Positions 6,184 through 40,877 of a DNA stretch of 40,877 bases are shown in pieces. The DNA lies in UHGV virus genome UHGV-1515682. One strand, written 5' to 3'. The stretch is from a virus. The position numbers and the translations under genes are program-made. The notes beneath the pieces are model-generated. The model did not search any database, was not told the origin of the DNA, and saw nothing but the letters and a program-made list of their open reading frames with translations. Each line of letters starts with the position of its first letter. The first letter of the stretch is position 1.

Positions 6184-6202
6184 AACTTGTTACCTCGGTC
6201 TG

Positions 6203-6336: not shown

Positions 6337-6921
6337 TTATTGTTTGCTTTTTTCGTTCTGGTTGATGACAAATTCAATGTAACTTTCGATCTTTGCTTTC
6401 TCTGTTTCAGGTAACAATGCGTAGCGCGAGCGGTCATAGTTGATAGTTGCAGGGTCGTGCGGGTGAATCAGTAGTTCATATCCGTGACGCCCGAATGCAG
6501 ATGCAACATTCTCCAGGGTGGAAATGGAAACGCTGACCTCATTGTTTAACAGGCGGCTGATTGTCACCTGGGCTACGCCGGATGCGCGGTGAAGTTTTCC
6601 CTGTGTTGAAAGGTCGCGGCTTTCGCTCATCCAGCGTTCCAGGTTGTGAGCCGCCAGCTGGCCAATGTCGCTTGGGCCGACAGGCTGAAAACCTTCCTGA
6701 GAAAGCGAGCGATCGATATCAAGCCAGTTACGGGGTTTATTGGCGGCAGCTTCAATTTTTCGTGCAACCTGGTCGCCGATAACCTTCTTGCCAAGAGCCC
6801 AGCGGTTTACCAGATTTGCCTGAGTTCCAAGTTTTTCTGCCATCCGCGTCTGAACACCATTGAATTCACGGTCGATCAAGTCGTTGAGATTTTGCCTGCG
6901 GACGTCCTGGATACTTTTCAT
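6337..6921 (-). CDS. CI-like repressor with two HTH (XRE-type) regions and no recognisable S24 peptidase domain
   Basis: 194 aa; two XRE-like HTH stretches (…TRMAEKLGTQANLVNRWALGKK… and …ASGVAQVTISRLLNNEVSVSISTLENVA…); divergent from cro-like gene across an operator-rich intergenic region; no S24-like Ser/Lys motifs. Confidence 0.65.
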   Translation of the reverse strand: MKSIQDVRRQNLNDLIDREFNGVQTRMAEKLGTQANLVNRWALGKKVIGDQVARKIEAAANKPRNWLDIDRSLSQEGFQPVGPSDIGQLAAHNLERWMSESRDLSTQGKLHRASGVAQVTISRLLNNEVSVSISTLENVASAFGRHGYELLIHPHDPATINYDRSRYALLPETEKAKIESYIEFVINQNEKSKQ

Positions 6922-7075: not shown

Positions 7076-7306
7076 ATGAGCGATAACGGACATTTCGATT
7101 TCAAAAAGCACTGGCTTGCACTTACTCCGGATGAGCGTGAAGCCTTCGCACAGGAAGCCGGAACGACGAGTCACTATATCCAGACTCACTTAACAGGTAA
7201 GCGCAAAATGCCAGGTAAAGTATTGATGAATGGGCTTTTTAAAGCCTGTAAAACAAGACAATGGCTGCGCTCAAAAGCAGAACTGGCATACTTCTTCTAC
7301 TCATGA
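7076..7306 (+). CDS. Cro-like small HTH regulator (YdaS/Cro-type)
   Basis: 76 aa; first rightward gene opposite repressor; HTH-like segment AFAQEAGTTSHYIQTHLTGKRKMPG. Confidence 0.55.
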   Translation: MSDNGHFDFKKHWLALTPDEREAFAQEAGTTSHYIQTHLTGKRKMPGKVLMNGLFKACKTRQWLRSKAELAYFFYS

Positions 7307-7327: not shown

Positions 7328-7351
7328 AGACCGCCACCCGGCGGTCTTTTC
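7328..7351 (+). terminator. Rho-independent terminator after cro-like gene
   Basis: agaccgcc-accc-ggcggtct hairpin followed by tttt. Confidence 0.65.
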
Positions 7352-7361
7352 ATATCTATTC

Positions 7362-7672: not shown

Positions 7673-8464
7673 ATGAGCAGACATGCAACAGATTGGGCCT
7701 GGGAGACAGATCCAGGTAGCTCGTCATTAAAGCTCATACTGCTCTCGATGGCTGACAGAGCCGATGAATATAACCTCTGCTACCCCAGCATAGAACGCCT
7801 CGTTAAAGACACTTGCCTGAATAAAAAAACCGTGCAGGCCGGACTTATATCGCTCATGAAAATGGGGCTTATTTCAGATACCGGAGAGAGAAAGGGAGCG
7901 ACGAAAAGAGTGCGGGTTTTCTCTCTTAATATAACCAAAAACGGGAACATTAAAGGCAACCGGGAAGGGGGTAATGAACCCGAAAACGGTAATGTTACCG
8001 AAAACGGGAATATACCCAAAAACGGGATGTTGAATGATCCCAAAAACGGGATCCAGAACCAGTCATATAACCAGTCATTTAACCAAGAGAGGGAGAGCAG
8101 GACAAAAACCGGGGATTCTGTTCCTCATGACCCCGGCGCAAACAACGCCGTGATGAATAACTTTGTTCCTCCTGGTGGGATAGGGCAATTAGGAAAATTT
8201 GTCATGCATGAACAATGGCAGCCATCAGATGACTTTCTTCGGAAAAGCTCATTGCAGGGAATCTACCTGGACAGTCTGCCAACGGCACAGGAACTTGCAG
8301 AGTTCAGAATTTACTGGATGGCTGAGGGTAAGGCATACCATCAGGCACAGTGGGAGCAGAAGCTGGCAAGGCGGCTGCAGATTAGCAGACAGAAGCAATC
8401 AACATTACCTGATAACAACGTTCCGCACTGGAACAGCCCTGAAGCATGGGAGGATTTCTTGTGA
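7673..8464 (+). CDS. Replication initiator, lambda O-like, with iteron-encoded repetitive linker
   Basis: 263 aa; N-terminal winged-helix-like region resembling lambda O N-terminus; central NGN/KNG repeats encoded by DNA iterons; followed by P-like gene. Confidence 0.65.
   Translation: MSRHATDWAWETDPGSSSLKLILLSMADRADEYNLCYPSIERLVKDTCLNKKTVQAGLISLMKMGLISDTGERKGATKRVRVFSLNITKNGNIKGNREGGNEPENGNVTENGNIPKNGMLNDPKNGIQNQSYNQSFNQERESRTKTGDSVPHDPGANNAVMNNFVPPGGIGQLGKFVMHEQWQPSDDFLRKSSLQGIYLDSLPTAQELAEFRIYWMAEGKAYHQAQWEQKLARRLQISRQKQSTLPDNNVPHWNSPEAWEDFL
7935..8052. repeat. Origin-like iteron array (five copies of CC(C/G)AAAACGG(G/T)A) inside the O-like gene
   Basis: Copies at 7935, 7978, 7997, 8015, 8038 followed by two accagtcat repeats; same arrangement as ori-lambda inside gene O. 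Confidence 0.6.
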
Positions 8465-10696: not shown

Positions 10697-11212
10697 ATGG
10701 CGTTAACACACCACGAACTATGTCAGATTGCGTACAAGTTCCTTAAGCGCAACGGGTTCAAGGTTTGCTTTCATGACCGCTTTGTTGCTGTAACCAGTAC
10801 CGGAGAACAGCCAGATGCTATGGGATTCAGAAATTCAGCATCATGCCTGATAGAGGCGAAGTGTTCTCGTGCTGACTTGTTGGCAGATAGAAAAAAGCGT
10901 TTCCGTAAAAATCCCTCACTTGGCATGGGCGACTGGCGATTCTTTATTAGTGAGCCGGAAATTATTTCAGTTGAGGATTTACCTCCCGGCTGGGGATTAC
11001 TTCACGTTGTTAACGGAAGAGTACGGAAAGTACATGGGTGGCCCAAGGGTAATTGCTGTTGGGGTAATCCTGACGATAAGCCATTTACTGGAAATAAGCA
11101 GGTTGAATGCGATTACATGTTATCTGCATTAAGGCGCATGGAGTTGAGAGGGCACCTTAATGAAATATATGACGGTGTAATTGTTAATAAGAAAGAAGGA
11201 AATGCGGCATGA
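10697..11212 (+). CDS. Hypothetical protein with possible PD-(D/E)XK-like motif
   Basis: 171 aa; …EQPDAMGF…LIEAKCSRADL… resembles D…ExK nuclease signature; AGGAG RBS. Confidence 0.4.
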   Translation: MALTHHELCQIAYKFLKRNGFKVCFHDRFVAVTSTGEQPDAMGFRNSASCLIEAKCSRADLLADRKKRFRKNPSLGMGDWRFFISEPEIISVEDLPPGWGLLHVVNGRVRKVHGWPKGNCCWGNPDDKPFTGNKQVECDYMLSALRRMELRGHLNEIYDGVIVNKKEGNAA

Positions 11213-11805
11213 CCACTTTTACCGACAAAGAAATGATTAAAGAAATCAAAGAGCGCATAGGCAGCTTGGATGTGCGAGACAATATTGAGCGCCGGGCTTA
11301 TGAAATAGCATTAGCCTCGCTGGAAGCAGAACCGGTGGCATGGCTGCATTCAGACAATGGCTTGGGTATTCCAGCAATAACCAGAAGTAAAAACGTTGCT
11401 GACAGTTGGTTATCAAAGGGCTGGTATGTTCAGCCGCTATATATAGCCAAGCCAGTGCCGGTGGTGCCAGATGCTCGTCCGTCTTTAAATAATGGCATAG
11501 TCGGCTTTGATGAAGGCTGGAACGCCTGCCGCGCCACCATGCTTCATGGTGCCAAACCTGTAAGCCAGACTTACAAGTTGAACGAGCTATCGGGCAACTC
11601 TCCGGTAACTCCGGATGGTTGGATAAGCTGTAGTGAGCGAATGCCCCCTCAAGATGATTGGATTTTAATTTATTCAAAGCACGGCGAGTATATGGCAGGA
11701 CAGGTACAAGGGGAATACGTGGAGTTGAGCGACGGCACTTTATCGTGGTTAGGGAACGCCTTGTTCTGGATGCCGCTACCAGAACCGCCGCAGGAGGTGA
11801 AGTGA
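11209..11805 (+). CDS. Hypothetical protein with DUF551-like C-terminal domain
   Basis: 198 aa; C-terminal WISCSERMPPQDDWILIY…WMPLPEPP typical of the phage DUF551 domain. Confidence 0.5.
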   Translation: MTTFTDKEMIKEIKERIGSLDVRDNIERRAYEIALASLEAEPVAWLHSDNGLGIPAITRSKNVADSWLSKGWYVQPLYIAKPVPVVPDARPSLNNGIVGFDEGWNACRATMLHGAKPVSQTYKLNELSGNSPVTPDGWISCSERMPPQDDWILIYSKHGEYMAGQVQGEYVELSDGTLSWLGNALFWMPLPEPPQEVK

Positions 11806-12089
11806 TGGACTCCTTCGCGAAATATACGATTATTGACTGGATAGCATTCCTTCAGGTTTTGCTCATCTGGTTTTATATGGCTTACAGGAGTGGACAGTGG
11901 ATTGTCAGTGTAGCCTGTAGCAAGGGATGGCGTTGGTGGAACCGAAAGAATAAAAAAGCACTGGCATTGGATTCGTTTTACGAAGCATTCAATCTTAACA
12001 GCCTTCAGCCTGGTTCTGTCATTGTAGTCACCACTCAAAGCGGCATGACGATACAAATTCACAAGCCAAAGGAGGAAGGTCGTGGCTAA
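11805..12089 (+). CDS. Hypothetical small membrane protein
   Basis: 94 aa; hydrophobic segment IIDWIAFLQVLLIWFYMAY; ATGA coupling to upstream gene. Confidence 0.45.
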   Translation: MDSFAKYTIIDWIAFLQVLLIWFYMAYRSGQWIVSVACSKGWRWWNRKNKKALALDSFYEAFNLNSLQPGSVIVVTTQSGMTIQIHKPKEEGRG

Positions 12090-12363
12090 CCTTCAACTTG
12101 CCGTCAAAGGTGAATACTTCGATGCCATGATTCGTGGAGAGAAAACGGAAGAGTATCGTCTGTGTAATGACTACTGGAATAAACGCCTCGTTAATCGTAA
12201 GTATGACCGCCTGATTATCACAAAGGGATATCCGAAGCGCGACGATTCCAGCCGCAGAATTGATGTTCCGTATGACGGATATGAAATCAAGACAATCACA
12301 CATCCTCACTTCGGCGATAAACCGGTAAATGTGTTCGCGATAAAGGTAAATATTGATGGCTAA
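12082..12363 (+). CDS. Hypothetical protein, ASCH/PUA-like fold suspected
   Basis: 93 aa; N-terminal LAVKGEYFDAMIRGEKTEEYR pattern; GTG start with GGAGG RBS. Confidence 0.4.
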   Translation: MANLQLAVKGEYFDAMIRGEKTEEYRLCNDYWNKRLVNRKYDRLIITKGYPKRDDSSRRIDVPYDGYEIKTITHPHFGDKPVNVFAIKVNIDG

Positions 12364-12694
12364 ATCAGCAGCAGAGCGCAAAGCCGCTCAGAGAGCCAGA
12401 CAAGCTGCATCTGGTGTGCGTAAGCTGGAAATTGTGCTTGATGCTCAGGAAATTGAAATGCTGGAGCGTAACTGTGCCACGCGTCGCCCCGGGCGTGCGC
12501 CTTACGAATTTGGTGAGTATATAGCGTTACTGATCCGCCAGGATGATGCACGCGTGCGCGGGCGTATAAAATCGATCAGCAGAAAACGTTGCGGTAAGTG
12601 CGGCGAGAGAGTTCCAGTTAATTCATGCCCGTGTAATGGTGACTCGCAATGCTGGGTGACTAAAGGCTGGCATGAAACGAAATTAATAGTGTGA
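12356..12694 (+). CDS. Hypothetical zinc-ribbon protein at the Q-antiterminator position
   Basis: 112 aa; CGKCGERVPVNSCPCNGDSQC cysteine cluster; last early gene before a terminator and the terminase genes. Confidence 0.45.
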   Translation: MAKSAAERKAAQRARQAASGVRKLEIVLDAQEIEMLERNCATRRPGRAPYEFGEYIALLIRQDDARVRGRIKSISRKRCGKCGERVPVNSCPCNGDSQCWVTKGWHETKLIV

Positions 12695-12702
12695 CATGTC
12701 AC
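12691..12702. repeat. Perfect 12-bp palindrome GTGACATGTCAC (copy 1)
   Basis: Overlaps stop codon of 12356-12694; identical copy at 32686-32697; both followed by a terminator hairpin. Confidence 0.5.
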
Positions 12703-12742
12703 GAGTAGATTATGCATGATGAATTTGATGGTTTTGAATACT

Positions 12743-12768
12743 GCCGCCAACTATGGCGGCTTTATTTT
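12743..12768 (+). terminator. Rho-independent terminator upstream of terminase genes (tR'-like)
   Basis: gccgcc-aactat-ggcggc hairpin followed by tttatttt. Confidence 0.6.
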
Positions 12769-12811
12769 GCATGGTACTATTACCACAACGGTAACTATTA
12801 CCACGGTGGTT

Positions 12812-13408
12812 ATGATGCCTGCTGAACCTAAAACCTATAAACGCAAATCAACGCAATTTAAGCCGCTCACAGCAATGCAGGAGGCTTATTGCCAGTCATA
12901 CATCAAAACGCCTGAAAACCAGACTCAGGCAGCGATTAACGCAGGATTCTCCCCAAATACAGCGGCAGTTAAAGCCAGTGTCATGATGCGCGATGAACGC
13001 ATTCAAAAACGGATTGCCGAGTTGATGGAGGAGCGCAACAAACGAATGCGCGTCAGTGCTGATTACGTTCTCATGCGCCTGGTGGAGATCGACCAGATGG
13101 ACGTGATCGACATCCTCAACGACGATGGGAGCCTTAAGCCAATCCGCGAGTGGCCGAAAATCTGGCGCACTACGCTTAGTGGCTTTGATCTGTCATCGAC
13201 CATCATGAACATGAACGAGGATTCGATAGAGACAATCCTCAAAAAAATTAAATGGCCTGACAAGGTGAAGAACCTCGAACTGATTGGTAAGCATGTTGAT
13301 GTCAACGCGTTCAAAGAACGTCTGGATGTTAATGTGAATGTGACAATTGCTGATCGCATAGCAGCAGCCAGGAAGCGACTCAAAGAACGTCAGGATGGTA
13401 ATCAGTGA
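12812..13408 (+). CDS. Terminase small subunit
   Basis: ~198 aa; motif QEAYCQSYIKTPENQTQAAINAGFSPNTAAVKASVMMR typical of phage small terminase; immediately upstream of and overlapping large terminase; start at ATG 12812. Confidence 0.65.
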   Translation: MMPAEPKTYKRKSTQFKPLTAMQEAYCQSYIKTPENQTQAAINAGFSPNTAAVKASVMMRDERIQKRIAELMEERNKRMRVSADYVLMRLVEIDQMDVIDILNDDGSLKPIREWPKIWRTTLSGFDLSSTIMNMNEDSIETILKKIKWPDKVKNLELIGKHVDVNAFKERLDVNVNVTIADRIAAARKRLKERQDGNQ

Positions 13409-14880
13409 AAGATACAGCGTTATCTCCTGAAGAGCAGTTGATCGAGGATATTGCAGGGTTCACTCACGATCCGCTTGGTTATGCCCTCTATGCGTTCCCG
13501 TGGGGGGAAGAGGGGACTGAACTGGCACATGCCACCGGTCCACGTCAGTGGCAGGCCGATGCGTTCCGAGAGATACGTGATCACCTGCAGAATCCAGAGA
13601 CGCGCTATCAGCCGCTTATGCTGGCACGCGCTTCTGGTCACGGTATTGGTAAATCCGCATTCATCTCAATGCTGATCAACTGGGGCATGTCCACTTACGA
13701 GGATTGTAAGGTCGTGGTGACCGCCAACACCGACAACCAGCTACGAACGAAGACCTGGCCGGAAATTATCAAGTGGTCGAACCTTGCTATCACGAAAGAC
13801 TGGTTTACCTGTACCGCTACCGCGATGTACAGCAATGACCTAGGGCACGACAAGCGGTGGCGGGCTGACGCAATACCCTGGTCTGAGCACAACACCGAGG
13901 CATTCGCCGGACTACACAACGAGCGCAAACGCATCATCGTGGTGTTTGATGAAGCGTCGAACATTGCGGATCTGGTGTGGGAAGTTGCCGAGGGTGCGCT
14001 TACGGACGAAGACACTGAGATTATTTGGGTGGCGTTCGGAAACCCTACACGTAACACCGGGCGTTTTCGCGAATGTTTCCGCAAATATAAACACCGCTGG
14101 AAAACTGCGCAGATTGACAGCCGGACGGTGGAAGGCACTAACAAACAGCAGTTGCAGAAATGGGTTGATGACTACGGGGAAGACAGCGACTTCGTTAAAA
14201 TCCGTGTGCGCGGCATATTCCCTGATGCATCTGAATTGCAGTTTATCCCTACCGGTCTTACTGATGAGGCAATGAAACGGGTGGTAACCGCTGCGCAGGT
14301 TGCACATGCTCCGGTGATAATCGGCGTTGACCCGGCATACTCCGGCGTTGATGACGCTGTGATATACCTGCGGCAGGGGCTGCACAGTAAGGTGCTGTGG
14401 ACCGGCAACAAGACCACTGACGATCTGATTATGGCAAAGCGTATCGCTGACTTTGAAGACCAGTATCAGGCTGACGCGGTGTTCATCGACTTCGGTTACG
14501 GTACCGGGCTGAAGTCAATCGGTGACGGTTGGGGGCGCACATGGCAACTTGTTCCGTTCGGTGGCGCGTCTACTGACCCGCAGATGCTCAACAAGCGTGG
14601 GGAGATGTTCAACTCATGCAAGACATGGCTGAGGCTGGGCGGCATGCTGGATGACCAGGAAACAGCGGACGACCTGTCGGCGGCAGAGTACAAAGTTCGC
14701 GTGGACGGTAAAATCGTTATCGAACCGAAGGAAGATATCAAAGAGCGGCTTGGGCGTTCTCCTGGTAAAGGCGATGCGCTACTGCTGACGTTTGCGTTCC
14801 CTGTGTCGAAGCGTCTGCGAATTCCCGGGCAGCAGAACCAGCAAGGCAAGGCGCTTACCGAGTACGATCCATATGCTTAG
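13405..14880 (+). CDS. Terminase large subunit
   Basis: 491 aa; Walker A-like ASGHGIGKS, ATPase plus nuclease regions; GTGA overlap with small subunit. Confidence 0.9.
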   Translation: MKDTALSPEEQLIEDIAGFTHDPLGYALYAFPWGEEGTELAHATGPRQWQADAFREIRDHLQNPETRYQPLMLARASGHGIGKSAFISMLINWGMSTYEDCKVVVTANTDNQLRTKTWPEIIKWSNLAITKDWFTCTATAMYSNDLGHDKRWRADAIPWSEHNTEAFAGLHNERKRIIVVFDEASNIADLVWEVAEGALTDEDTEIIWVAFGNPTRNTGRFRECFRKYKHRWKTAQIDSRTVEGTNKQQLQKWVDDYGEDSDFVKIRVRGIFPDASELQFIPTGLTDEAMKRVVTAAQVAHAPVIIGVDPAYSGVDDAVIYLRQGLHSKVLWTGNKTTDDLIMAKRIADFEDQYQADAVFIDFGYGTGLKSIGDGWGRTWQLVPFGGASTDPQMLNKRGEMFNSCKTWLRLGGMLDDQETADDLSAAEYKVRVDGKIVIEPKEDIKERLGRSPGKGDALLLTFAFPVSKRLRIPGQQNQQGKALTEYDPYA

Positions 14881-15695
14881 TCTTTATTTTTATCATCGAA
14901 ACCTGATAATCCAGATAGAACACCAAAGTTATTAAAAACGTTTGGCTTACCAGATTTTAATCCGGATAAGTTGTGTTGCTCCAAAAAGTTGCTAATTGTT
15001 TGGCCGTTGCCAAGTGCAAGGCTTTTTATTTGAGATTTTTCAGGGTATTTGAGTTTGTATTCGTCGAAATCATTTTGGAGGGTCTTATATGCCTCATTCA
15101 TTCTTCCCAGAGTTTCCGATATCTCTTTTAATGAATGATTTAGAGCTGCTAACTGAGCACTGGCGGATCTCAATTCGTCATCTTTAGCTTTCAACTCGGC
15201 AGTCAATTCCCCCATACTATTCTTTGATCGAATAATCTCTTCTTTCATCTCTTGGATGTCTTTTTCCGCGCCAGTCTTAACTTTGTCGTATGTAACATCT
15301 TTTTTAGCCAATAACCTCTGCAGTCTGGTTTCACGCTGGATTTTTCTTGCCTTCAGGTGATTTTCGATTGAGTCATTATTATCAAGAGGCTTTGCTTGCC
15401 ATACGTTAATGATATTGTTTACCCATGGTAATAGGCAGCAGATAGCAATTACAGATAAGCATGGATAAAACATAACAGTTTTCCATGTGCTGTTATCTGA
15501 GATATATGAAATTTTATCTATTATGTTTGATTTGCTAAAAAATAGATAAAGAATTGATTTCCAGTTGAAGGCGCACCAGGACATAACAAAAGCACCAAGC
15601 ACAGGGTTTTTGGCTCGATTCACGGCAGTATTGGCAGTAGATAAAAACAGCTCTTTAAACGATTCAAACATGCTAATTACCTTGAAGTTTTTCAT
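14877..15695 (-). CDS. AT-rich cargo gene: membrane-anchored coiled-coil protein of unknown function
   Basis: 272 aa from ATG 15695 (MKNFKVISMF); two predicted TM helices then long coiled coil; opposite strand to flanking late genes; low GC. Confidence 0.6.
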   Translation of the reverse strand: MKNFKVISMFESFKELFLSTANTAVNRAKNPVLGAFVMSWCAFNWKSILYLFFSKSNIIDKISYISDNSTWKTVMFYPCLSVIAICCLLPWVNNIINVWQAKPLDNNDSIENHLKARKIQRETRLQRLLAKKDVTYDKVKTGAEKDIQEMKEEIIRSKNSMGELTAELKAKDDELRSASAQLAALNHSLKEISETLGRMNEAYKTLQNDFDEYKLKYPEKSQIKSLALGNGQTISNFLEQHNLSGLKSGKPNVFNNFGVLSGLSGFDDKNKD

Positions 15696-15699
15696 GATT

Positions 15700-15714
15700 A
15701 TACCTTTAAGGTAA
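15700..15714. promoter_or_regulatory. Dyad operator-like site atacctttaaggtaa adjacent to cargo gene start
   Basis: ATACC-N5-GGTAA (one mismatch) 5 bp upstream of ATG 15695. Confidence 0.45.
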
Positions 15715-15767
15715 TTTGCGGTCATCAAGCAAAAAAATGCCCGGCGAACCGGGCGAACTGGAAGCAA

Positions 15768-15917: not shown

Positions 15918-15994
15918 TGGCGTGGCATGCAGGATTCGAACCTGCGACCAACCGCTTAGAAGGCGGTTGCTCTGTCCAACTGAGCTAATGCCAC
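15918..15994 (-). tRNA. tRNA-Arg (anticodon UCU)
   Basis: Hand-folded cloverleaf: acceptor GTGGCAT/ATGCCAC, D-arm GCTC…GAGC, anticodon stem ACCGC/GCGGT with loop CTTCTAA, T-arm GCAGG-TTCGAAT-CCTGC, discriminator G, encoded CCA. Confidence 0.85.
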
Positions 15995-32308: not shown

Positions 32309-32689
32309 ATGAGAAAAGTATTTTTGATTTTTGGATTTATGCTTCTCGTTGGATGCCAGTCAGCTGCACAGTTTGAAAGAAATATGCTTACGTGGCGCGG
32401 GCAGAGTATAGACGCAATGGTTCAGCAGTGGGGGTATCCTCAGGGAGAGCTTACATCTCCAGATGGAAACAGAGTGTATGTTTACTCAAGCTCTGGTAGT
32501 TATAACGTACCACAAACCACAACGTATAATACTACGTCTAATCTAATTGGTAATACTATATATTCAAACACATACGCAACAACTGATGGCGGTTATACAC
32601 TCCATTTCAGTTGCTCTGTTTACGTTGAGTTTGGTGCTGATAAGATTATTAAAAATGTTACATGGCGCGGTAATAATTGCGTTGCGTGA
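32309..32689 (+). CDS. Cargo lipoprotein
   Basis: 126 aa; signal peptide with lipobox (MRKVFLIFGFMLLVGC); AT-rich; Ser/Thr/Asn/Tyr-rich mature region. Confidence 0.6.
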   Translation: MRKVFLIFGFMLLVGCQSAAQFERNMLTWRGQSIDAMVQQWGYPQGELTSPDGNRVYVYSSSGSYNVPQTTTYNTTSNLIGNTIYSNTYATTDGGYTLHFSCSVYVEFGADKIIKNVTWRGNNCVA

Positions 32690-32697
32690 CATGTCAC
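32686..32697. repeat. Perfect 12-bp palindrome GTGACATGTCAC (copy 2)
   Basis: Overlaps stop codon of lipoprotein gene; immediately followed by terminator. Confidence 0.5.
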
Positions 32698-32722
32698 AGG
32701 CCGCTTTCGCGGCCTTGTTTTT
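32698..32722 (+). terminator. Rho-independent terminator after lipoprotein gene
   Basis: aggccgc-tttc-gcggcct hairpin followed by tgttttt. Confidence 0.65.
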
Positions 32723-33758: not shown

Positions 33759-34445
33759 TCAGAAGAACCCTGCCTTGTCGTTGATGTACTCCGCGTGCGT
33801 CTGGATATCACGCAGGCATTTGCTCACACCAACGATGTAACAGAACATGGTGGTCAGCTCCGCCGCCGCGCCCGATACGTCGTGCCCGTCTTCCTGTAAC
33901 TGGTTCAGCAGATTCATCAGCAGTGAGTTCTCCGTCAGGCCGAGAACACCAGACGGCGAATGAATCAGGCTACGGTAGCCTGGCTTCAGTGGGGCACTGT
34001 AGGTTTTGTTCTCTATCTTCATCGCCTGCATTACTGCTGACGCCGTGGCGTTGGCTACCTGGTCGGCAACCATCTTTATGCGTTCTTCCTGCGGGAGCGA
34101 GTTTTTAATGTAACTTCCGGTGCGGCGGATCTGAGGAAGAACCTCACCTGTAACCCATTTACGAAAGCGGTATGGGATAGTGCCTGGTGTCACCGCATCG
34201 CGGCAGCGGAGGATCAGTGTGTAGAGGCCTGACTCGTTGATAATATTGGTTTCGCCTTGACGGCCTAAGTTAAATTTAGCCCTTTCATCATCATCAAGAG
34301 ATTTTATTGACATAGTGGGGTTTGTCAGTTGAAGAGCTTTAATAACGTCTTTGGCAACAAACCAAGGATTTCCATCAATAACAATGGCTCGAATGGTTGC
34401 TTCTGATTCAAAATGAAAAACAGATGGGGTTACGTTAGCAGTCAT
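33759..34445 (-). CDS. Bro-N domain antirepressor-like protein
   Basis: 228 aa from ATG 34445; N-terminal Bro-N signature (FHFESEATIRAIVIDGNPWFVAKDV…GLYTLILR…RFRKWVTGEVLPQIRRTGSY); C-terminal ~70 aa homologous to the product of 35591-35848. Confidence 0.75.
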   Translation of the reverse strand: MTANVTPSVFHFESEATIRAIVIDGNPWFVAKDVIKALQLTNPTMSIKSLDDDERAKFNLGRQGETNIINESGLYTLILRCRDAVTPGTIPYRFRKWVTGEVLPQIRRTGSYIKNSLPQEERIKMVADQVANATASAVMQAMKIENKTYSAPLKPGYRSLIHSPSGVLGLTENSLLMNLLNQLQEDGHDVSGAAAELTTMFCYIVGVSKCLRDIQTHAEYINDKAGFF

Positions 34446-34721
34446 AGTGATCACCTTTGTAGTTAGGTTAATCACCACTACCGACGCCAATCGGTTGGTG
34501 GTGAACTGTGCAGGGTTGGCGTAACCGGCTACAAAGGACCCGGCGCACCTTTCGGTGCCCCCACACAGCCCACCATAGAATAGGTGCGCTTTACACATAA
34601 AAAAACCGCTTATGCGGCATATGTGCCTCTGTAGTAATCCGGGACGCCAATCCCGGCACTGGATTTTGCCAGTGCCCGATTACTATGGCACAAGAGGAGT
34701 GCGATGTAAATTTACCGTAAA

Positions 34722-34839: not shown

Positions 34840-35568
34840 ATGGAAGTTTTCTGGATAGTTGTTGGTGTGGTTGCGGTGATTATTTACGTTATCAACCAGA
34901 ACAAGACTAAGATCTCTGATCGTACGGTCGTTAATCATAACAAAACGATAAAGACCGAAGATGGGGAGATAACGATTAATCGTACACAGGTGATAGAACA
35001 CACCTCTACTCAGTTTCAAAAAACTGGAGGTAATGCGCCTAATATTTCCGCACCTCCTGCTTATGATAGTGCGGTAATCCAGACATATTATAAACAGCAG
35101 GAGTTAGCAAAAGAGAGGCAACTGATTCAGCCAAAGCCGTTTACAGCTGAGATTCCACCTGGAGTGTCAACGCGTCCGGCATATCATGGAAGATTCCCTG
35201 GTGATGACATATCGTCTCAGTCATCTAAAAAAGCACCTCAGGCAATATCAGAGCCAGCAAGAATACCTTCTGTATCGCCGCCAAAAGAAGAATCAGCTAA
35301 CAGAGTTTCAAGTGGTAGCAAGCAGTGCTTGCGATGCAGAATAAACCTTCCATATGAAAAATTCAGGAAATCGTCAAAAAATCCAGATGGATTGACTAAA
35401 TGGTGTGCAAGGTGTCTCGATGGCCCAAAGAATACACGCCATATGAAGTGGTGCCCAATTTGTAATGTCCGCAGAAAACGAACCAGCTTTTACCCTAATA
35501 ATCAAAATGCGGACGGCTTAATGGCATGGTGCAAAACGTGCTGGGATGAGCACAAAGCGAAACGATAG
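34840..35568 (+). CDS. Membrane-anchored protein with two C-terminal zinc-ribbon-like repeats
   Basis: 242 aa; N-terminal TM helix; repeated C-x2-C…DG…W-C-x2-C units. Confidence 0.55.
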   Translation: MEVFWIVVGVVAVIIYVINQNKTKISDRTVVNHNKTIKTEDGEITINRTQVIEHTSTQFQKTGGNAPNISAPPAYDSAVIQTYYKQQELAKERQLIQPKPFTAEIPPGVSTRPAYHGRFPGDDISSQSSKKAPQAISEPARIPSVSPPKEESANRVSSGSKQCLRCRINLPYEKFRKSSKNPDGLTKWCARCLDGPKNTRHMKWCPICNVRRKRTSFYPNNQNADGLMAWCKTCWDEHKAKR

Positions 35569-35584
35569 GCCGCTCTTGCGGCCT
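35567..35584. terminator. Hairpin between convergent genes
   Basis: aggccgc-tctt-gcggcct stem-loop overlapping stop of 34840-35568. Confidence 0.45.
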
Positions 35585-40768: not shown

Positions 40769-40877
40769 TGTGCACAGAAAACCCCCAGCTAGGCTGGGGG
40801 TTCCGGAAAGCTTTCAGCTTTGAGCCAGTTATTAAAACCCCTTTTGATTTGTTAAAACACCTTGCGGTCTGGCAACT

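Follow-up and report, generated by a model that had tools for sequence, protein, structure and literature searches.

The 40,877-nt virus genome UHGV-1515682, analysed over its full length and referred to below as the window, is an epsilon15-like (Uetakevirus) temperate podovirus or prophage. A plus-strand open reading frame (ORF) encoding 112 amino acids, termed the regulator gene here, extends from an ATG at 12356 to a TGA at 12692-12694 and is the last cistron of the early unit. Its stop codon falls inside a perfect 12-bp palindrome, GTGACATGTCAC, at 12691-12702 (site A). The early unit is ended by a strong putative intrinsic terminator on the plus strand, T1 (12743-12768), located 40 nt past site A and approximately 48 nt past the regulator stop codon. 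T1 consists of a stem at 12743-12760 with 7 pairs, 6 of them G-C, and a 4-nt loop (GCCGCC-AACT-ATGGCGGC), followed by the tail TTTATTTTG, and its counterpart in epsilon15 is annotated as a rho-independent terminator. The packaging genes follow on the plus strand: terS (start at 12812 or 12815, end at 13408; Pfam Terminase_2, E 1.6e-29; PHROG 51) and terL (13405-14880, by the annotation of 97-98% identical phages). The initial annotation had placed a gene at 12356-12694 as the last early gene upstream of a terminator and the packaging genes, and had proposed from this position and a cysteine cluster that it encodes a Q-like late antiterminator. The gene and its setting were confirmed; the assignment to Q was not, and the evidence below points to a different class of regulator with a candidate DNA site at operon boundaries.

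According to the ORF list, the left end of the window carries an integrase gene, a leftward early operon and a repressor gene (6337-6921, minus strand), and these are followed by rightward early genes and then by terS, terL and the portal, head, tail, tailspike and lysis genes. The region 11000-14000 was 94-98% identical to Escherichia phages TL-2011b, vB_EcoP_PAS61, vB_EcoP_ZX5 and phiV10 and to O157 typing phages, and matches in a scan of IMG/VR were restricted to phages that are 88-100% identical. Both O157 typing phages and Salmonella phages that convert serotype belong to the epsilon15-like group. Late-gene control in these podoviruses is poorly understood, and no homologue of Q, N or Ogr has been annotated in them; the annotations of epsilon15 and TL-2011b list no regulator of these types.

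The regulator ORF is clearly a real coding gene, as indicated by its match to PHROG 536 (E 1.6e-54, residues 1-111) and by 726 homologues (E<=1e-3 in a collection of 5.8 billion proteins) that fall into 154 clusters at 50% identity. PHROG 536, labelled 'transcriptional regulator' in both PHROG and RefSeq, takes in epsilon15 gp49 (locus L006) and N15 gp46 (locus L003), to which full-length identity by tblastn was 78% and 34%, respectively. Members were found in Uetakevirus, in N15-type telomere phages, in P2-like Yersinia phages and in Vibrio phages, and all named hosts belong to Enterobacterales, Vibrio or Aeromonas. The gene is the last cistron of its unit in Uetakevirus-type and Vibrio phages and the last but one in N15-type phages, and in some prophages it precedes xis-int instead of the late genes. 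The longer members P0243, P0259 and P0156 resemble gene-calling fusions with decayed neighbours and offer no hint of function. In Yersinia phage vB_YenM_42.18 (locus L040, 7960-8318), the start of the RefSeq coding sequence gp15 (8073-8318) is set too far downstream; a full-length homologue beginning MTTASDRKRAQRQRD can be read in this frame from approximately 100 nt upstream of the annotated start.

An AlphaFold2 (AF2) model of the regulator was built on an alignment of 56 family sequences and reached a mean predicted local distance difference test score (pLDDT) of 89. A basic helix (residues 5-19), which holds the invariant R13 and the near-invariant R8 of the alignment, is followed by a strand (22-28), helix A (30-42), a long helix B (52-74), a knuckle of four cysteines (C79, C82, C91/93, C99) and a further helix (100-108). 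The strand-helix-helix (beta-alpha-alpha) topology is that of the ribbon-helix-helix (RHH; Arc/MetJ/CopG) superfamily. Faint matches of family members to RHH_5 (E 0.013) and RepB (E 0.028), two members each, to RHH_1 (E 0.071, one member) and to the NCBIfam model YbfE, 'LexA regulated protein' (E 0.052), were also recorded. Scans of the regulator with Pfam, NCBIfam and PADLOC gave no significant family, phmmer found no match among PDB sequences, and Foldseek against PDB and BFVD returned nothing except one RHH protein and a fragment from the regulator's own family. The model thus predicts a small, dimer-type DNA-binding regulator in which an RHH domain has a basic helix on its N-terminal side and a long helix plus a zinc module of four cysteines on its C-terminal side. 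Like the RHH repressors P22 Arc and Mnt, CopG, omega, ParG and E. coli YbfE, the protein would combine the beta-alpha-alpha fold and an N-terminal basic arm with a short palindromic target. It differs from them in its additional C-terminal four-cysteine module and in the location of its candidate sites, which lie at the 3' ends of units in transcribed DNA and not at promoters.

The start of the regulator gene overlaps the stop of the ORF upstream (12082-12363) by 8 nt (ATGGCTAA), an arrangement that would suit an RHH antitoxin paired with that ORF. Such a pair is scarcely credible, since the upstream neighbour differs between close relatives, being DUF2591 in TL-2011b, NinX in ZX5, gp48 in epsilon15 and gp45.1 in N15. 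In addition, PADLOC gave no match, the upstream ORF matched ASCH only faintly, and the C-terminal part of the regulator is predicted to be a zinc module and not a toxin-binding tail.

The cysteine cluster noticed in the initial annotation (C79-x2-C82-x8-C91-x-C93-x5-C99) proved to be a family trait: C79, C82 and C99 are invariant in the 56-sequence alignment and a fourth cysteine stands at 91-93. The product is a small zinc-cysteine protein and probably a nucleic-acid-binding regulator. When the family profile was run against PDB sequences, the three best matches were YbiI and TraR (E 0.02-0.03, borderline), all in the C-terminal half, where CxxCG..(I/L)P and G...C align. The regulator shares with these DksA/TraR C4 zinc-finger proteins (F TraR, E. 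coli YbiI) the order of a long helix, a Cys4 knuckle and a C-terminal helix. However, its cysteine spacing is C-x2-C-x8-C-x7-C and not C-x2-C-x17-C-x2-C, zf-dskA_traR was absent from the Pfam matches reported for the 56 relatives, and the equivalent of the channel-inserting helix of TraR is part of its RHH core. The resemblance of the C-terminal half to DksA/TraR is therefore taken as a lead only. A similar comparison applies to Ogr/Delta of P2/P4, which likewise are small Cys4 phage proteins acting on late genes, as is proposed for the regulator; the latter lacks the Pfam match and has another cysteine pattern than the C-x2-C-x22-C-x4-C of Ogr. Moreover, the P2-like Yersinia phage vB_YenM_42.18 encodes a textbook Ogr (gp53) after gene D in addition to the family member that closes its early operon.

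The proposal of a Q-like protein implies a regulator that binds DNA at a late promoter and joins an RNA polymerase held in a sigma-dependent pause, which then resists the terminator and every later one. Its resemblance to the lambda-type Q proteins (lambda Q, Q82, Q21 and N15 gp40) lies in its small size, its location at the end of the early unit, with a terminator and the late genes next in line, its cysteine/zinc element, reminiscent of the cluster in lambda Q, and probably a DNA site next to its own gene. No similarity of sequence, profile or fold to Q was detected. No Pfam Q family was matched by the protein or by any of the 56 relatives, the outcome of the profile search that the initial annotation had put forward as a check; the hhalign probability was 0.3% against lambda Q and 0.1% against N15 gp40; and the fold searches returned no Q structure. 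The initial annotation had itself seen no sequence similarity to known Q proteins, and the Pfam and hhalign results agree. Of the architecture expected just downstream of a Q gene (late promoter, Q-binding element (QBE), pause site and terminator), only the terminator is present. The sole promoter-like match, a weak sigma70-like GTGACA-18-CATGAT over the palindrome, is no commoner than chance would predict (2 found, 2.7 expected) and has no conserved counterpart in L014 or L028. The sense and antisense sigma70-like matches that surround the palindrome were rejected on the same grounds.

Further evidence against Q function came from phages that carry a dedicated late regulator beside the homologue. 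N15 gp46 and phiKO2 Gp45 are family members, and the same phages encode the Q-like gp40 and Gp38, with a separately annotated late promoter and terminator several kb away from the family gene. Unlike sites of Q, the palindrome also occurs at other operon ends, and its copy at site C (see below) leaves no room for a promoter before the terminator. The protein has no relationship to the Q antiterminators and would not share their mode of action; a divergent Q-type mechanism is very improbable. The annotation 'Q-like antiterminator' should accordingly not be passed on to the PHROG 536 family. A regulator acting as a gate between early and late genes, in a looser sense, does suit the locus, where the conserved candidate site GTGACATGTCAC stands between gene and terminator.

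The window holds two perfect copies of this palindrome, GTGAC-NN-GTCAC in its general form. In addition to site A, a second copy at 32686-32697 (site C) overlaps the TGA that closes the structural operon, which is the stop codon of a lipoprotein-like ORF (32309-32689). For comparison, annotated phages were examined together with 27 prophage loci of other species, whose family proteins are 50-81% identical. The palindrome was found at or just past the stop codon of the family gene in approximately 24 of the 27 loci, as well as in epsilon15, N15 and phiKO2. Overall, 418 kb of related loci contained 47 perfect copies against an expectation of approximately 0.4 (length/4^10), and lambda contained none. 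Three copies each were present in epsilon15 (39612, 2142 and 19517), in Vibrio phage K253, and in N15 and phiKO2, in the latter two at equivalent positions.

The palindrome stays with the regulator gene when the downstream module changes, whether this is the terminator and terS, morons with LexA boxes inserted before the terminator (L008, L009, L013, L014 and L016), xis-int modules (Pantoea and Serratia loci) or gene 47 of N15. In Xenorhabdus, the copies stand 4-10 nt beyond the stop codon, which rules out coding constraint as the explanation. The epsilon15 counterpart of site C lies at the stop of gp18 (19517). In the window, the gp18-like ORF is separated from site C by a lipoprotein-like moron (32309-32689, plus strand) whose signal peptide ends in LLVGC; thus gp18 itself ends in the palindrome in epsilon15 and the moron does so here, so that different genes share the TGA inside it. 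A dyad-symmetric 12-mer is the target expected of a dimeric RHH protein, and the palindrome is most probably the binding site of the regulator. PHROG 536 is a family of predicted RHH-plus-zinc regulators with a strongly supported candidate binding site at operon boundaries.

The LexA boxes (TACTGT-N8-ACAGTA, with a TTGACT -35) lie approximately 20-200 nt past the regulator gene in the five loci named above and drive morons located between the palindrome and the terS terminator. A UmuD-like gene occupies this place in phage Chlobot.

The site of MatP, which organises the Ter macrodomain of the E. coli chromosome, is matS, GTGACRNYGTCAC (PMC6907758), and the palindrome equals this sequence minus one central base, with identical arms, GTGAC and GTCAC. 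This near-identity raised the alternative that the palindromes are matS-like sites without a role in transcription, at which the protein would bridge or condense DNA or interfere with MukBEF or the divisome. MatP is carried by Enterobacterales, Vibrio and Aeromonas, the very groups to which the named hosts of the family belong. Both proteins are RHH-based dimeric DNA binders, at least as predicted for the regulator, with a basic segment approximately 10 residues ahead of the RHH strand and an R-K dipeptide entering it. Consistent with this, hhalign placed MatP 101-139 on helices A and B in register, with R22-K23 opposite R90-K91 of MatP, and the occurrence of only 2-3 sites per genome would also fit such a role. 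However, the hhalign probability was 0.55% (E 0.1), so that homology is not demonstrable, and MatP was absent from the profile search of PDB sequences. The regulator has 112 residues, a single N-terminal helix and a zinc module in place of the four-helix bundle and C-terminal coiled coil of MatP; its site has 12 bp, with a 2-nt spacer, against 13 bp for matS; and no 13-bp matS-type site was found in the window, N15, epsilon15 or the Yersinia phage. The palindromes lie at phage operon ends, consistently in transcribed DNA just ahead of terminators, which suggests an interplay with transcription. On these comparisons the regulator does not fall within the MatP family, the resemblance to matS is an unproven lead, and a purely organising role is considered quite unlikely.

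In epsilon15-type phages, the palindromes are found where transcription units end at the 3' side, upstream of the intrinsic terminators. Site A covers the regulator stop codon and precedes the terminator by 12-41 nt across loci. A further position, site B, is occupied in relatives and absent from the window; it is located between the stop codon of a minus-strand moron and its terminator near terL, at a distance of 2-4 nt. Site C directly abuts terminator T3 (32698-32722, plus strand; AGGCCGC-TTTC-GCGGCCT followed by TGTTTTT), whose hairpin occupies 32698-32715 and precedes the T tract, so that sites B and C stand 0-4 nt from their terminators. The hairpins that follow the palindrome, at 0-41 nt, comprise at least 10 different sequences and always lie on the downstream side of incoming transcription. 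The association of the palindrome with this many unrelated hairpins in different lineages indicates that the pairing is not one inherited cassette. Conversely, L019, L022 and L033 have neither palindrome nor terminator after the family gene. A hairpin of the T1 type is kept upstream of terS in related loci even where a moron separates palindrome and terminator. Outside this group the sites also occur in transcribed DNA and not upstream of promoters: in N15 and phiKO2 one directly precedes the ribosome-binding site (RBS) of gene 47, another is within repA and the third separates the repA operon from the immA antirepressor region, and two palindromes of Vibrio phage K253 stand 19 nt upstream of start codons, that of terS included.

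Other features of the intergenic region were also considered. An Rfam scan of 12695-12811 gave no RNA family. The RNA 12695-12815 folds much better than shuffled sequences (z -4.2), with the terminator enclosed by one stem and CCAC base-paired in a second hairpin to GGUGG, the ribosome-binding site of terS. This structure was set aside, as the score stems from the long enclosing stem, which is not conserved in epsilon15.

From the placement of the palindromes, the regulator is rather likely to act on transcription across unit boundaries. In the proposed model, the protein would build up as the last product of the early unit, bind the boundary palindromes and alter the amount of transcription that passes the adjacent intrinsic terminator. 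The favoured direction is the opening of a gate, that is, site-specific read-through of T1 into terS-terL, which would add upstream transcription to the output of a repressor-controlled terS promoter. That the effect is read-through and not a block is assigned a rough overall probability of 0.4. This direction is favoured because strong terminators are the regular partners of the palindrome, because palindrome and terminator vanish together in L019, L022 and L033, as a gate-opener would predict and an insulator would not, and because a regulator encoded by the last cistron before its own gate would constitute a simple timer. A role as the late switch of epsilon15-like phages through such a gate is plausible.

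The most specific form of the model, a DNA-site-directed, terminator-proximal antitermination in which an RHH-zinc protein on a matS-like palindrome lets passing or pausing RNA polymerase read through, is put forward tentatively and is itself unlikely. It would need no nut or put RNA, no late promoter and no sigma-dependent pause; the TraR-like zinc module would possibly contact the polymerase, and the system may have arisen by descent from MatP-matS or by mimicry of it.

The same positions could be read in the opposite sense, with the bound protein stopping elongating RNA polymerase at unit ends. As a roadblock it would reinforce termination, limit its own synthesis through the site over its own stop codon, and shield neighbouring modules such as terS, convergent morons and the antirepressor operon of N15 immA. 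The location of the palindromes in transcribed DNA and not at promoters fits this alternative, as do the placement of sites B and C between convergent genes and the repressor habit of RHH proteins. The N15/phiKO2 site between the repA and antirepressor operons, which has no terminator, the copy inside repA, and the promoters and operators that the late units appear to possess themselves would agree with it as well. However, strong intrinsic terminators already follow most sites, which would make a roadblock redundant. Where no terminator stands behind the gene, the palindrome is missing too, although such loci are just where an insulator would be expected. Dimer sites of 12 bp that occur singly are, moreover, usually weak roadblocks. 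A role as roadblock or insulator is a possible but less likely explanation.

The terS promoter invoked above is a putative promoter/operator region at 12772-12813 (plus strand), predicted from an extended -10 (TGgTACTAT, 12772-12780) and two overlapping operator-like sites of the ATTACC-N5-GGTAAT type (12779-12795 and 12797-12813). The direct repeats ACTATTACCAC belong to sites of this operator-like type and do not form an element of their own. ATTACC-N5-GGTAAT occurs 17 times in the window (135-39152) against 1.15 expected, for example at 6202, 6264, 6976, 9283, 9345, 12779, 12797, 16315, 34804 and 35924. The copies flank the repressor gene and precede most units, early and late, including those of the portal and tailspike, and often overlap a -10-like hexamer. 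In epsilon15 the same sites, including those upstream of terS, are annotated as binding sites of the 'repressor'. The late units thus appear to have directly repressor-controlled promoters, and the distribution suggests a multi-operator control of the entire genome as in P1. A strong plus-strand terminator (7328-7347) directly follows the cro-like gene (7076-7306), with an operator-like site next to it at 7361, and the rightward early region seems to be cut into short, separately controlled units.

With promoters in view, the palindromes could also be operators or activator sites of nearby promoters (the terS promoter, the LexA-box moron promoters of relatives, or Pa of N15), their position at operon ends being incidental. 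In L008, L009 and L013, 6 nt separate the end of the palindrome from the downstream TTGACT -35 of the LexA-box promoter, one N15 site precedes by approximately 24 nt a TTGACG -35-like hexamer that lies ahead of the immA region, and the family label 'transcriptional regulator' would be apt. However, the position of site A relative to the putative terS -10 varies from approximately -74 in epsilon15 and approximately -90 in the window to more than 300 nt where morons intervene, and a terminator lies in between. Sites B and C have no downstream promoter; the Vibrio sites, 19 nt from start codons, and the N15 site that abuts an RBS leave no room for one; and the portal and tailspike units have no palindrome. 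Regulation at the promoter level is judged unlikely.

Several observations weigh against read-through as the function of the regulator. RHH proteins are, to our knowledge, overwhelmingly repressors, and we know of none that acts as an antiterminator. The terS, portal and tailspike units have their own promoter/operator-like regions, so that late expression need not depend on read-through of T1. Site B precedes the terminator of a minus-strand moron that converges on terL, and convergent genes follow site C; read-through in these contexts would yield only antisense RNA. In N15, phiKO2 and the Pantoea prophages, the palindrome has another gene directly behind it and no terminator, the variable spacing between site A and its terminator (12-41 nt) argues against a strict geometry, and other strong plus-strand terminators in the window (7328 and 35567) have no palindrome. 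The coexistence of homologues with Q in N15 and phiKO2 and with Ogr in the Yersinia phage counts in the same direction. Finally, literature searches on the motif, on gp46/gp49 and on phage MatP-like proteins found no characterisation. A 'gp46' was detected in the lysogen proteome of telomere phage NAR688 (PMC12042878), but its ambiguous numbering precludes a link to the PHROG 536 family.

The locus provides a testable pair, a widespread PHROG 536 protein and a 12-bp palindrome that marks operon ends beside terminators. Opening of the terminators by the protein would amount to a form of antitermination that differs from those of N, Q, put RNA and RfaH, and closing of them would make the protein an insulator dedicated to operons. 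That the palindrome is nearly identical to host matS raises the further question of cross-talk with chromosome organisation.

Additional features were recorded elsewhere in the window. Between terL and the portal operon lies a tRNA-Arg with anticodon TCT (15918-15994, minus strand), adjoining a 296-aa coiled-coil/membrane ORF (14877-15767, minus strand) that overlaps the terL stop codon. At 34494-34675 (minus strand), Rfam gave matches to C4 antisense RNA (79.5 bits) and isrK (76.8 bits), which lie directly upstream of a BRO/antirepressor-like ORF (33759-34598, minus strand) and extend over its start; together these form an immI-type antirepressor control module comparable to those of P1/P7 and to immA of N15. 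The 242-aa product of ORF 34840-35568 (plus strand) combines a membrane helix at the N terminus with three C-x2-C pairs in the C-terminal part, and the ORF has a perfect operator-like site in front (34804) and a strong terminator behind (35567-35584). At the right end, 40780-40877 (plus strand) matched the Hfq-binding small RNA STnc490 (102 bits); the match is cut by the end of the window and probably marks the junction of prophage and host.

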